DNA of 64,000 nucleotides, from contig CADCHE010000015.1 of NCBI GenBank assembly GCA_902801205.1, positions 6,110 through 70,109 of the forward strand, written 5' to 3'. The notes under the pieces are model-generated. The model saw nothing but the letters and a program-made list of their open reading frames with translations. It searched no databases and was not told the origin of the DNA. Origin of the DNA: an uncultured Bacteroidia bacterium. GTDB taxonomy: Bacteria > Bacteroidota > Bacteroidia > Bacteroidales > UBA932. The position numbers and the translations under genes were made by a program. This document shows positions 58,989 through 64,000 of the stretch, piece after piece. Positions within the stretch are counted from its first letter, which is position 1; the number at the start of each line of letters is the position of its first letter.

Positions 58989-60164
58989 ATGGCTGAATAC
59001 AAGGAATTCGACAGTATATGTCCTTATAATGACGAGGAGGCGGTCGCTGCATTGAGTCAAGTGGCTGACCATCCCGCCGTCTTCGCACTCTCCGGTTATT
59101 TCTTTCCGGACGAACCCGTCACCTATCTCCGGAGCGCTTTGAAGCAGGTCCGCAGCATCGACGAGTTCCAGCAGCTGATCATGAACCAGGCGGTTACCTG
59201 GGTGATGGAGAATACCGTCCACAATTTCTCATACAGCGGTATCCGCAACGTCTCTGCCCAGAAAGGCAAGTTCCTGGCGATGTCCAACCATCGGGACATC
59301 ATCCTCGATCCGGCGATCACGCAGCAGGTGTTCTTCCGGAACGGCATTCCGATGACCGAGATCTGCGTCGGGGACAATCTGATCAAGCAAAGCAAGACGG
59401 TCGAGAAATTGCTCCGCTCCAACCGGATGATCACCGTGATCCGCGGGATTTCCGCCCGCGAGCTGTACCTTTCTTCGCAGGTGCTTTCCCGCTATATCCG
59501 CCAGACGATCACATCCGGAAAGTCTTCCATCTGGCTCGCGCAGCGGCAGGGACGGACAAAGGACGGCATCGATACGACGGAACAGGGCCTGCTCAAGATG
59601 CTCGACATGAGCGGAACGCGGTCTTTCGAAGAGAATTTCTCCGAACTCTGCATCCTCCCGATGAGCATTTCCTATGAGCTGGAGCCCTGCGACATCAAGA
59701 AGGCCCGCGAAATCCTGATTTCCCGTACGGAAAAATACGTAAAGAAACGTACGGAAGACCTCCATAGCATCGTCACCGGTATCCGCCAGCAGAAGGGCAA
59801 CATCCACCTGACCTTCTCGAACCCCTTGACGCGCGACGAAATCGCCGAGGCGGCGAAGGGCAGCGGCAACGACCGGTACCAGCGCATCCGGCACGTGGTC
59901 AACCGGCGTATCATCGCCGGGTACAAACTCTGGAAGACGAATTACATCGCCGTCGACCTTCTGGAGGGCGACACGCGGTACGCCGACCGGTACGCCCCCG
60001 AGGACCGCGAGCGCTTTGAGGCCTATACGGAACACCGGCTCGACAAGGTGGAGCGGAAACTCGACAGGAACGACCTGCGCGATATTTTCCTTCACATCTA
60101 TGCCAATCCGGTGTACTCGAAGGAGAAGCTTGCGGACAACGTCCCGTTCCGGGCGGACGAATAA
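58989..60164 (+). CDS. Glycerolipid acyltransferase (PlsC/PlsB-like)
   Basis: HxxxxD motif NHRDIILD, GDNL, AQRQGRTKDG, PMSISYE..PCD. Confidence 0.88.
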   Translation: MAEYKEFDSICPYNDEEAVAALSQVADHPAVFALSGYFFPDEPVTYLRSALKQVRSIDEFQQLIMNQAVTWVMENTVHNFSYSGIRNVSAQKGKFLAMSNHRDIILDPAITQQVFFRNGIPMTEICVGDNLIKQSKTVEKLLRSNRMITVIRGISARELYLSSQVLSRYIRQTITSGKSSIWLAQRQGRTKDGIDTTEQGLLKMLDMSGTRSFEENFSELCILPMSISYELEPCDIKKAREILISRTEKYVKKRTEDLHSIVTGIRQQKGNIHLTFSNPLTRDEIAEAAKGSGNDRYQRIRHVVNRRIIAGYKLWKTNYIAVDLLEGDTRYADRYAPEDRERFEAYTEHRLDKVERKLDRNDLRDIFLHIYANPVYSKEKLADNVPFRADE

Positions 60165-60171
60165 TCCTGAA

Positions 60172-61455
60172 TCAGAACAATGTGTTCACGGCGGCGATGA
60201 TCTCTTCCGCCGGCAGTTCGGGACTCAGGACGAGGTCCGGCTGTTTGAGCGAATACCCTTTGGCCGTCGCCTCGATCATTCCGGCGCCGGTGATATTGAG
60301 CATCACGGTCTCGTTCTTGGACACGGAACCGTCTTCCAGGGCTTTGGCCAGCGCGGCGACGGCGCAGGCGGAAGCGGGGAAGATGTCGTATCCTTCCTTG
60401 TGCAGGAACTGCAGGAGATAGAAGATCAGTTCGTCGTTGTTGACTTTGTAGAAGTCGCCGCCGGAGGCGCGGAGCACGTCGAACAGGCCGCCGGCGAGGC
60501 CGTACGGCGGTTTTCGGTTGGAGAGCACCTTGGCGAGGATGATCTCTGCGTTCCGGCGCGAGGAATCCGCCGTCAGGGGCACGAGGTCGCGGGTCCCCGC
60601 TTTCCATGAATCGTACATCAGGGTATAGGGAGCGTTCTGCACGCAGTAGATGCGCATCTTGTTCGCACCGAACCGGCCGTCGGCGGCCAGGCGTTCCGCG
60701 TTCTCCCATGCGGCAATGGCACCGGTGCCGCTGCCGACAGCCTGGAAATAGGCGTCGGGGATGCGCCCGATCGACTCCACGGCGCTCAGTACGGTCGTCC
60801 CCATGCCGTCGCGGCGGGCGACGTTCTTGGCGCCGCCTTCCAGCAGGTACCGGGGATCCTGGCAGAGTTTCTCGCCGAGTTGGATGGCGTCATAGTAGTC
60901 CGTTCCGTGCGGCGTGGCGATGACCTTCACGCAGGGATGCAGTTTGCGGCGGAACCACAGGTCGGCGACGTTGTCGCTGGGGATACAGACGACGAGGGGG
61001 ATGCCGTTGTCGGAGCAGACGCGGGCGAAGGCACGTGCCGTGTTGCCTGCAGACTGGACGACCAGGATGCGCTTGTTCTTCCTGGGCAGCCGGGCGCAGA
61101 CGGAATAGGCTTCCGTCTCCTTGAAGGATCCCGTTTCCATCCGGGCGCCCCGCTTGGGGACATAGCCCGAGAGGGTGATGTACAGGTCGCTCATTCCCAG
61201 CAGTTTGGCCAGCCCCTTGCTCTTGTAGGTGACCGGTGCGTGCGAGTGGCGCAGGGTGCGCTGGATCGGAAGCCAGTCGGCATAGCGGTACAGCCCCTTC
61301 AGGTTGCTCCTCGGGTTGAAGTTCTGGTTTTCATATACCGCGCGAAGCAGGGACGGATCGCCCCCTTCCGGATCCGAGAGGGTCCAGCCGGCGTCGTCGA
61401 AAATCCTGCCCGAACCGACGTTCATCAGCCGGTATTTCGTGGGTTCGAATTTCAT
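60172..61455 (-). CDS. Cysteate synthase (threonine-synthase-like PLP enzyme, archaeal type)
   Basis: YRYADWLP, TLSGY, PLP lysine in TGSFKETEA, SAGNTARAF, EGGAKNVARRDGMG, YFQAVGSGTG, VLSNRKPPY, LNITG. Confidence 0.85.
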   Translation of the reverse strand: MKFEPTKYRLMNVGSGRIFDDAGWTLSDPEGGDPSLLRAVYENQNFNPRSNLKGLYRYADWLPIQRTLRHSHAPVTYKSKGLAKLLGMSDLYITLSGYVPKRGARMETGSFKETEAYSVCARLPRKNKRILVVQSAGNTARAFARVCSDNGIPLVVCIPSDNVADLWFRRKLHPCVKVIATPHGTDYYDAIQLGEKLCQDPRYLLEGGAKNVARRDGMGTTVLSAVESIGRIPDAYFQAVGSGTGAIAAWENAERLAADGRFGANKMRIYCVQNAPYTLMYDSWKAGTRDLVPLTADSSRRNAEIILAKVLSNRKPPYGLAGGLFDVLRASGGDFYKVNNDELIFYLLQFLHKEGYDIFPASACAVAALAKALEDGSVSKNETVMLNITGAGMIEATAKGYSLKQPDLVLSPELPAEEIIAAVNTLF

Positions 61456-61482
61456 GGTGTGCGTTTTTTCGTGTTATGGTGA

Positions 61483-62448
61483 TTATAATTGACAGATCAG
61501 GAAAGTCATGTAAGCGGCTTCGCAGGCGACCAGGAGGGCGCCTCCACCGCGTCCCAGCAGCCTTCGGGGATGCACCAGGGCCAGCAGGAGGAGCAGCACG
61601 CCGCCGGAGAGGAAGGCGATGTAGTCCACCGGGGTGATGTTTGAGAAACTGAGCGGATGGATCAATGCCGAACCGCCCAGGATCAGCAGGACGTTCGAGA
61701 TGTTGGACCCGAGGATATTTCCGAGCGCGAGGGCGTCTTTCTGTTTGGCGGCTGCCACGATGCAGGTCACCAGTTCCGGCAGGGAAGTGCCGCCGGCGAG
61801 GATCGTGATGGCGATGAACTTGTCGCTCCAGCCGGCCATGCGGGCGATGTCCGTCGCCGCATTGACGAACAGGCGGCCGCCGATGACGAGCCCGGCAAGC
61901 CCGCCGAGGACCATCAGGACATACCAGACCGTTTTCCGGGTAGGGGCGGCTGCGCCGGGTTCCTCCTCGTCCTGCTGCGCTTTTCCGCTGCGGAAGGACA
62001 GGACCATGTAGAGGACGAAGAGCAGGAGAAAGAACAGTCCGCCTGCGCGTGTAAGCGTGTTCTCCGTTCCGAGCCCCAGAGCGGTGCGGGTGCCGATCCC
62101 TACCAGCAGCAGGCTGACGAGCAGGTTCAGCGGGATGTCGCGCCGCAGGTTCTCCTTGGTGATCCCGACCGGCAGGATGATGGCGGTCAGTCCGAGGATG
62201 AACAGGATGTTGAAGATGTTGGAACCGATGACATTGCCGATGGCGACATCCGATTTCCCCTGGAAGGCGCCGAAGAAACTGACGACCATTTCCGGCGTGG
62301 ATGTGCCGATGCCGACAATCGTCAGGCCGATGAGGAACTCGCTCAGCCCTGCTTTCCGGGCGATGCCGGAGGCGCCGTCCACCAGATAGTCGGCACCGAA
62401 AACGACCAGGGCGAGCCCGGCGAGAAGAATCAGGATATTTGTCAGCAT
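61483..62448 (-). CDS. Calcium/sodium:proton antiporter (YrbG/CaCA family)
   Basis: Two alpha-repeats GTSTPE...GNVIGSNIFN and GTSLPE...GNILGSNISN. Start moved to MLTN at 62448. Confidence 0.94.
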   Translation of the reverse strand: MLTNILILLAGLALVVFGADYLVDGASGIARKAGLSEFLIGLTIVGIGTSTPEMVVSFFGAFQGKSDVAIGNVIGSNIFNILFILGLTAIILPVGITKENLRRDIPLNLLVSLLLVGIGTRTALGLGTENTLTRAGGLFFLLLFVLYMVLSFRSGKAQQDEEEPGAAAPTRKTVWYVLMVLGGLAGLVIGGRLFVNAATDIARMAGWSDKFIAITILAGGTSLPELVTCIVAAAKQKDALALGNILGSNISNVLLILGGSALIHPLSFSNITPVDYIAFLSGGVLLLLLALVHPRRLLGRGGGALLVACEAAYMTFLICQL

Positions 62449-62456
62449 ATTCGTGA

Positions 62457-62464
62457 ACAAAGAT
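62457..62464 (-). promoter_or_regulatory. -7 promoter element TATCTTTG for the antiporter and cysteate synthase
   Basis: Minus-strand TAnnTTTG 8 nt before the ATG at 62448. Confidence 0.5.
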
Positions 62465-62518: not shown

Positions 62519-64000
62519 ATGAAAGTATTATCTCTCCTCGCCGGTCTGTTTTTTTCGGCGCTTCTGGGGGCCCAGGAAATCCCGGATGACTTCATCTCCT
62601 TCTCCGTTCCCGGATATGAAAAGCAGATGGAACAGATCCGTGCCATTTACTATGAGGCATACATGAATCCGGCTGCGCGTCCGGGCCCGTCTTTCTGGGA
62701 CGTCTGGACACCGGTTCCGCTGATGAGCGTCGCTCCGCTCAAGGCGGATATGGATTCTCTGTGGATCCACACGATGCTCACGCGCCACATCGACAGGCAC
62801 GGCTATGTCTCCAGCCACCAGCATTTCAGCCACGCGCTCGACAGCGGGTGGCCGTTCCCGTTGTTCCCGCAGTTGCAGGAGGGATTCGAAGGTGCTACGT
62901 TCGGATACCTGTTCCAGGATTCGCCGGAAGATGTGACCGGCATGCTTTCCGGCTGGCGGGGACTTTTGTACGACAAGGGGTACATGGGTGACCGTGCCGC
63001 GGGGCGCTGGACCTTGAAAGGGCTTCGCTCCGGTGGCATCGTGAACGATGCCTGGGAACTGACCGTGACGGACGAATCGCCGTCCATCGAGACGGAAGCG
63101 GGGTTCCTGATCGATGCCTTTTGCTGCCCGTTCATCAGCTTCCGGGCCGAATGGGACACCGATGCCCCCATGCAGGGCGTGATGGAATGGTGCCGGGAAG
63201 GGGAGGAGCGGCTGGGCGGGAAGGCGCAGCGGGTCCTCTTCGACATGCAGCAGCCCGATCCTTTCCATGGCACCCACGTCCGTTACTGTACGTTGGAGCC
63301 CTACCTTGAGAAAGCGTGGACCGGGAAGATCACCAAGTTGCGGTTCACCTTCCCGAACGCGCCCGGGTCGAAGATCCGCCTCCATGCCATCTTTTCAGCC
63401 TTCGACACGCGGCATCAGATGAATGCCTGCAACTTCCTGATCGGATCCATCCATACGTTCAACCAGACCGGAGACGAGGCCTTCCTGCGCGGGAACATCG
63501 AGCGGATGCGCAGGGTTTTCTCCTATGCCCAGGAAGAACTGTACGACCGGAAGGCGGGCATGATCCGGGTCCGTTACCCCGGCCACGACGGTTTGCCCGG
63601 CTTCATTCGGGATTCAGCGGGACGGAAAGTGTATCAATACGGCCATTCCATCGGTGGCAATTACTGGGACATCCTGCCCTTCGGAAACCTGGAGACATAT
63701 ACCTCATATTATTATGTTTATATGCTCCGTATGATGGCTGACTTGGAGGAATACATCAGGTCGAATGAGGCCCTCGGCGTGCCATCCGGCGGCCGTCGCC
63801 TGCATCCGCGCGCCCTGCGCCGGGAAGCGGACCGGATCGCGGCCACGCTGAATCGCAGGCTCTGGAATGAACGTACCGGCCGTTTCTATGCCTCCGAGGA
63901 TGTGGAAGGGAACAAATGGGACTACGGCTTCACCTTCCTGAATGAAGAGGCGATTTATTATGGCGTGGTTTCTCCGGAGCATGCGCGCTCGATCATGGAC
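62519..64000 (+). CDS. Secreted six-hairpin glycosidase-like protein, 3'-truncated (not in the ORF track)
   Basis: Hand translation gives 494 codons with no stop: MKVLSLLAGLFFSALLGA-QEIPDD...; TGDEAFLRGNIERMRRVFSY, GGNYWDILPFG, LWNERTGRFY, DYGFTFLNEEAIYYG resemble (alpha/alpha)6-barrel glycosidases. Confidence 0.8.
   Translation, partial: MKVLSLLAGLFFSALLGAQEIPDDFISFSVPGYEKQMEQIRAIYYEAYMNPAARPGPSFWDVWTPVPLMSVAPLKADMDSLWIHTMLTRHIDRHGYVSSHQHFSHALDSGWPFPLFPQLQEGFEGATFGYLFQDSPEDVTGMLSGWRGLLYDKGYMGDRAAGRWTLKGLRSGGIVNDAWELTVTDESPSIETEAGFLIDAFCCPFISFRAEWDTDAPMQGVMEWCREGEERLGGKAQRVLFDMQQPDPFHGTHVRYCTLEPYLEKAWTGKITKLRFTFPNAPGSKIRLHAIFSAFDTRHQMNACNFLIGSIHTFNQTGDEAFLRGNIERMRRVFSYAQEELYDRKAGMIRVRYPGHDGLPGFIRDSAGRKVYQYGHSIGGNYWDILPFGNLETYTSYYYVYMLRMMADLEEYIRSNEALGVPSGGRRLHPRALRREADRIAATLNRRLWNERTGRFYASEDVEGNKWDYGFTFLNEEAIYYGVVSPEHARSIMD

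Follow-up and report, generated by a model that had tools for sequence, protein, structure and literature searches.

What does an enzyme described as archaeal in type do in a Bacteroidales genome, and for which product is its cysteate made? This question is raised by a window of 64,000 nucleotides (the whole stretch of DNA analysed here) from contig CADCHE010000015.1 of an uncultured Bacteroidia bacterium (Bacteroidales; UBA932), towards the end of which a cysteate synthase gene lies behind the gene of a calcium/sodium antiporter. The window is located on contig 15 of a genome of 2.47 Mb, which comprises 22 contigs, is 98.7% complete and exhibits a contig G+C of 0.56-0.62. The cysteate synthase, together with a cysteate-C-fatty acyltransferase (CFAT) and a short-chain dehydrogenase/reductase (SDR) encoded on contig 13, very probably serves to provide membrane lipids of the capnine type with their sulfonate head group in Cryptobacteroides-like Bacteroidales, as judged from homology and gene context.

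The gene of the window is, by its profile and structure matches, a genuine cysteate synthase of an already well-known type. Its product scored 418.3 bits on the NCBIfam model TIGR03844 (cysteate_syn; cut-off 324.9), with residues 8-394 aligned to positions 1-381 of the 398 positions of the profile; the whole-genome profile search agrees, and the gene is present in a single copy in the genome. The threonine synthase models returned 72.7 bits for the best of them, NF006050 (cut-off 303), and 38.5 bits for thrC, TIGR00260 (cut-off 167.1), so the ThrC equivalog cut-off was not reached, and Pfam recognised the general PALP domain only (118.8 bits). The top match in the PDB was 9k3c/9k3o, entitled 'Cysteate synthase' (478 bits, E 2.3e-142; residues 3-427 on 4-429 of 435), with threonine synthase structures reaching at most 58 bits (best, 2d1f); no paper describing structure 9k3c was found in the literature. 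The original prediction of a full-length threonine-synthase-like enzyme with cysteate-synthase motifs is thereby borne out, and the comparison of hidden Markov models for the two enzymes, which it had proposed as a check, gave a clean separation. Family membership predicts that the enzyme converts O-phospho-L-serine together with sulfite to L-cysteate and phosphate.

The lysine forming the Schiff base with pyridoxal phosphate (PLP) is Lys112, within the motif SFKETEA, and the loops of the protein comprise SAGNT (135-139), EGGAKNVARRDG (206-217) and the glycine loop GSGTGA (241-246). In the alignment of 15 diverse sequences, consisting of the window protein and 14 members at 36-47% identity, the residues F111, K112, E115, A116, S135, G137, N138 and T139 were invariant, as were G207, G208, N211, R214, R215 and G245. 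The same catalytic motifs were also observed in the archaeal family member from Methanomassiliicoccus, which shares 41% identity with the window protein. At the N-terminus, ribbon-like cysteines occupy three columns in 48, 42 and 43 of 50 representatives, where the window protein has N12, S15 and D28, and all three cysteines were kept in only one of nine other Bacteroidales sequences compared. In the solved 9k3c the first of these columns holds Cys and the second Thr, so the cysteine motif is not needed for membership of the family.

Three alpha-oxoamine synthases were detected in the genome, namely Kbl on contig 19, an enzyme resembling serine palmitoyltransferase (SPT) on contig 11 (C11:68103-69290), and the CFAT on contig 13. 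A cysteate acyltransferase of this superfamily, the gene that had been suggested earlier as a genomic check on sulfonolipid synthesis, is therefore present. The CFAT matched over its full length SulA of A. finegoldii (7u7h, 567 bits) and CapB of C. ochracea (28eh, 'Cysteate-C-fatty acyltransferase', 538 bits). As read from the alignments, its residues include the catalytic Lys251 (FAKSMA) and the trans-subunit, SulA-specific Lys281 (YAKSLP), the residue that separates SulA from SPT (Radka et al., PMC9304779), and likewise Asn53, the FGY motif, His140 and Cys142, all of which line the cysteate pocket in the structure of CapB with cysteate (PMC13692747). The SDR model NF004825, which fits the adjacent contig-13 gene, is also the best model for the SDRs in the three-gene clusters of congeners, to which the identity is only 32%. 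The SPT-like paralogue carries Ala at the position of Lys281 and scored 609 bits on NF047600 (cut-off 640) and 494 bits to the Sphingobacterium SPT structures. With both the SPT-like enzyme and the CFAT, this genome may make both sphingolipids and sulfonolipids; sulfonolipid producers are said not to make sphingolipids (PMC11525784).

In three congeneric genomes the genes for CFAT, SDR and cysteate synthase are clustered together, in the order CFAT, cysteate synthase, SDR in G001, and in the order CFAT, SDR, cysteate synthase, followed by a YeiH-family membrane protein, in G005 and G007. Among the relatives, counted throughout as the 80 matches listed (out of at least 80) from species-representative genomes, the CFAT gene adjoins the cysteate synthase gene in six of the 80 named relatives. 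In an order-level sample of 201 Bacteroidales genomes, each at least 90% complete, 45 possess a cysteate synthase over the TIGR03844 cut-off, and a CFAT-like gene is present in 44 of those 45. The sulfopyruvate decarboxylase ComDE was not found in the host genome (best TIGR03846 match 27 bits; cut-off 221.5), and the coenzyme M route is therefore excluded. Taken together, the CFAT and SDR matches, the congener clusters, the co-occurrence and the lack of ComDE make the first step of capnine/sulfonolipid synthesis the most likely role of the enzyme, and these genomic data support the earlier suggestion that the lineage makes sulfonolipids, by a pathway whose biochemistry has been worked out in Alistipes, Capnocytophaga and Chryseobacterium (PMC11211663, PMC9304779, PMC13692747, PMC11525784).

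The YeiH-family protein, annotated as 'putative sulfate exporter' (PF03601), was observed directly downstream of the cysteate synthase in G005 and G007 (L045:10499-11866, L046:2493-3833) and in six of the 80 relatives, and is a possible sulfite or sulfonate transporter; the host genome has its own copy (C3:112450-113808, 78% identity), which is unlinked to the cysteate synthase.

In the proposed pathway, phosphoserine would be supplied by the SerC-like aminotransferase, the gene of which is present in the genome, and on the fold-type II PLP cysteate synthase sulfite would replace the phosphate of O-phospho-L-serine to yield L-cysteate. The contig-13 acyltransferase of the SulA/CapB type would then join cysteate with an acyl thioester to give 3-ketocapnine, which the neighbouring SDR would convert to capnine, the long-chain base of sulfonolipids. 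Sulfite would probably be obtained from outside the cell or via an unrecognised desulfonation, as the genome yielded no genes for sulfate reduction. In the search for an endogenous sulfite source, two PFL2-family glycyl radical enzymes (C3:24316-26385 and C13:38027-40225) were also considered; both are far under every equivalog cut-off and have no assignable specificity.

Several observations weigh against this pathway. The cysteate synthase, on contig 15, is unlinked to the CFAT and SDR in the host genome itself, and no NIR_SIR, PAPS-reductase/CysD family or Xsc gene was found in the 98.7% complete genome. The CFAT of the genome has Ala at the position of SulA Thr248, a contact of the PLP phosphate (CapB 247); this Ala is common to the acyltransferases of the host genus, other Bacteroidales CFAT-like proteins examined keep Thr, and the T247A mutant of CapB retains 19-48% activity (PMC13692747). 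The candidate reductase role of the SDR is drawn only from its adjacency to the CFAT and from the shared SDR subfamily. SulA/CapB-like acyltransferases with Lys281 are present in 154 of the 201 Bacteroidales genomes, against 45 with cysteate synthase, and about 110 sampled genomes carry such a CFAT-like protein without a canonical cysteate synthase, so that clade membership by itself is no proof of cysteate use. Lys281 as proof of cysteate use was likewise rejected, the lysine being present also in CFAT-like proteins of genomes without cysteate synthase, and is taken as necessary, not sufficient. Neither the canonical cysteate synthase nor a second threonine-synthase-like family (described below) was observed in 74 of the 154 CFAT-like genomes, where either another cysteate source exists or the CFAT clade is not uniformly cysteate-specific. 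The features on which the reconstruction is built are collected in Table 1.

Table 1. Location of the cysteate synthase, the antiporter and the candidate partner genes (window positions for contig 15; C13, contig 13 of the same genome).
Feature	Position	Strand	Details
Cysteate synthase (CapA/CYS type, TIGR03844, EC 2.5.1.76)	60172-61455	(-)	ATG start; 427 aa; PLP enzyme
Spacer, antiporter stop to cysteate synthase ATG 61455	61456-61482	(-)	exactly 27 nt
CaCA-family (YrbG-type) calcium/sodium antiporter	61483-62448	(-)	321 aa; ATG 62448; stop codon 61483-61485
Cysteate acyltransferase, SulA/CapB type (CFAT, alpha-oxoamine synthase family)	C13:15058-16323		421 aa; PDB matches
SDR, candidate 3-ketocapnine reductase	C13:16342-17163		273 aa; 18 nt downstream of CFAT; NF004825 294 bits

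It is hardly credible that the model mis-called the window protein and that this is a divergent paralogue of threonine synthase: the cysteate synthase family arose from threonine synthase and weak threonine synthase matches were indeed observed, but the protein stands 93 bits over the TIGR03844 cut-off and far under that of thrC, its nearest structure is a cysteate synthase, it carries the family-specific motif EGGxxNxARRDG, and a genuine ThrC is encoded elsewhere in the genome (C10:43540-44541, 270.7 bits; cut-off 167). It is quite improbable, too, that cysteate is made chiefly to dispose of toxic sulfite from the environment, or for a use outside lipids, such as the storage or exchange of sulfonate, with the lipid route being secondary or fed otherwise. 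Such a use would agree with a substrate that must be scavenged, since no endogenous sulfite route was found, with the separation of the cysteate synthase from the CFAT in the host genome, with the YeiH-family gene that follows the cysteate synthase in six related species, and with the approximately half of the CFAT-like-positive Bacteroidales that have no recognisable cysteate synthase; the nearly invariable company of a CFAT-like gene in genomes with cysteate synthase, the three-gene clusters and CFAT adjacency among relatives, and the lack of any detected cysteate-degrading or coenzyme M enzyme in the genome speak for sulfonolipid synthesis instead.

A further proposal gives the antiporter a part in the pathway. 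The original prediction placed a CaCA antiporter on the same strand, 27 nt upstream of the cysteate synthase, and both the gap, which is exact, and the family held, the protein scoring 232 bits on TIGR00367 (cut-off 180) and 205 bits on Pfam Na_Ca_ex, with two repeats; its outer end had been set at 62464, a few bases too far, as the best start is the ATG listed in Table 1, with an in-frame TTG at 62460 as the alternative. It is the only CaCA antiporter found in the genome. The spacer leaves no room for a regulatory region of its own, and co-transcription of the two genes is therefore likely. Overlapping the antiporter gene at its 3' end is a sigma-70-like match (ATGACT-16-TATAAT, 61509-61482), of doubtful relevance to Bacteroidota promoters, and a Bacteroidota-type promoter, TAnnTTTG, directly upstream of the antiporter ATG was discarded, as the motif is too short to be evidence. 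A functional module of the two genes, in which CaCA serves ion-coupled uptake or homeostasis in sulfite or sulfonolipid metabolism, is unlikely. In its favour, besides the short same-strand gap, the antiporter is the immediate upstream neighbour of the cysteate synthase in 6 of 12 related loci and in 43 of 80, and the pairing persists where the flanking QueA/hypothetical block is inverted. In G153, moreover, a genome of a different Bacteroidales family, a CaCA antiporter (L137:6118-7074; 44.5% identity over 256 residues to that of the window) is situated immediately upstream of a gene group made up of a CFAT, a member of the second threonine-synthase-like family, and genes resembling HdrC and HdrB; CaCA is here paired with sulfonolipid genes for a second time, independently, which leaves a small doubt on the bystander reading. 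Against the module, the pairing was observed in none of 30 cysteate synthase loci from other Bacteroidales families, the adjacency is lost in congeners where the cysteate synthase joins the CFAT, and the antiporter scores as an ordinary YrbG-type Ca/Na antiporter, with no chemistry known to link the two proteins. A scavenging module, in which CaCA would aid the uptake of external sulfite or sulfonate, or the ion balance, and the synthase would fix sulfite into lipid head groups, is very unlikely; if it were true, sulfonolipid output would be tied to sulfite from neighbouring taurine- or sulfoquinovose-degrading microbes. The pairing reads as a gene order retained by inheritance, in which the two genes are probably co-transcribed, more than as a demonstrated functional unit.

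The two genes are flanked in the window by open reading frames without a Pfam or NCBIfam match, one at 58989-60164 (+; 391 aa) and one at 62519-64000 (+; more than 493 aa), which runs off the window; the former is a conserved neighbour in 41 of the 80 related species.

The host is probably a Candidatus Cryptobacteroides-like member of the Bacteroidales from the rumen or gut. The closest named homologues are labelled by NCBI as 'cysteate synthase [Candidatus Cryptobacteroides sp.]' (74-76% identity), and all 80 related loci belong to metagenome-assembled genomes of rumen or animal-gut Bacteroidales (57-79% identity), many of them Candidatus Cryptobacteroides, which confirms the Bacteroidales origin assumed earlier; no archaea were present among the 80 loci listed. 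The local G+C of the gene region (0.62) is close to that of the genome's contigs and thus gives no compositional sign of recent transfer. The label 'archaeal-type' holds in so far as the family includes archaea, with the control genome of Methanosarcina acetivorans also passing the TIGR03844 cut-off, whereas the oddity of such a gene here was overstated, given the 45 of 201 Bacteroidales genomes with the family and its published sulfonolipid role (PMC11211663, PMC11525784, PMC13692747). Outside the Bacteroidales order, the cut-off was passed in only one of 200 sampled Bacteroidota genomes (four of other Bacteroidales families), and the three of 20 family representatives with a taxon were assigned to Gammaproteobacteria, Methanomassiliicoccus and Phycisphaerae. 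In a quick tree, the tips of which mostly have no taxon labels, the Bacteroidales sequences group in a clade of their own (SH-aLRT 96), apart from the sole named archaeal sequence; the named sequences being too few, no donor or direction of transfer is inferred.

Differential distribution was also observed for a second threonine-synthase-like family, which is present in 39 of the 201 Bacteroidales genomes, 37 of which carry a CFAT-like gene, and which occurs together with the canonical cysteate synthase in only one genome. Its members, such as G111:C1:1279452-1280669 (L136:3950-5170, minus strand), L137:3412-4641 and L138:3275-4498, are 403-410 aa long, exhibit an N-terminal CxxC...CxxC ribbon, keep the lysine and the SxGNT loop, have no EGGxxNxARRDG and score under every threonine and cysteate synthase cut-off. 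At least five genomes have them directly beside the CFAT and six more within 10 kb of it, and in one genus one species has the second family and another the canonical enzyme. On these patterns of sequence and neighbourhood, the second family looks like a candidate alternative cysteate synthase that would have arisen by non-orthologous displacement; no other ThrC was found in three of six second-family genomes checked, so that in those the protein could be the threonine synthase. The HdrB/HdrC-like genes beside the alternative clusters were rejected as part of the pathway, their homologues in the host genome (54-60% identity) being unlinked. If the second family is a cysteate synthase, counts based on homology underestimate the number of sulfonolipid producers.

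Published work already covers the enzyme family, its structure and partner enzymes, and the occurrence of the family in gut Bacteroidales, and near relatives of the window protein already bear the name 'cysteate synthase' at NCBI. The new element is modest, being a large uncultured clade, Cryptobacteroides-like, that is a probable sulfonolipid producer; a full-text literature search found no sulfonolipid report for it. Host TLR4 signalling is affected by the sulfonolipids that gut Bacteroidota produce, and disease-association studies employ the genes for their biosynthesis as markers (PMC11525784). To the likely producers is now added a large clade, mostly of rumen and animal gut, in which the early pathway gene set appears full. 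Knowledge of the enzyme and the pathway is changed neither by the probable production in this clade nor by the missing sulfite route, and the side lead on the second family is the more useful by-product.

Compared with known systems, the window protein belongs to the same TIGR03844 equivalog as the cysteate synthase with which archaea (Methanosarcinales) make coenzyme M, has the catalytic motifs in common with the Methanomassiliicoccus member, and the archaeal and window enzymes presumably perform the same chemistry; the archaeal coenzyme M system differs in its downstream partner, sulfopyruvate decarboxylase, for which a cysteate acyltransferase is found here. With ThrC it shares the fold-type II PLP superfamily (Pfam PALP) and the same kind of substrate with a phosphate leaving group, but lies far under the TIGR00260 cut-off in a genome that has a ThrC besides. 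Unlike most TIGR03844 members, the window protein and eight of the nine other Bacteroidales sequences do not have the full set of three N-terminal cysteines, whereas the motifs of the PLP-lysine, SAGNT, EGGxxNxARRDG and the glycine loop are alike in the window protein and the bacterial cysteate synthase 9k3c/9k3o, which is matched over the full length. The contig-13 CFAT matches SulA (Alistipes finegoldii) or CapB (Capnocytophaga ochracea), and its adjacent SDR is a candidate counterpart of the 3-ketocapnine reductase, with the change of SulA Thr248 to Ala in the host genus as a difference. As in the published bacterial capnine pathway (PMC11211663, PMC11525784), the cysteate synthase co-occurs with a CFAT and an SDR, whereas, in contrast to CapA/CYS of known sulfonolipid bacteria, its gene is situated behind a CaCA antiporter instead of beside the pathway genes, in an uncultured Cryptobacteroides-like lineage.

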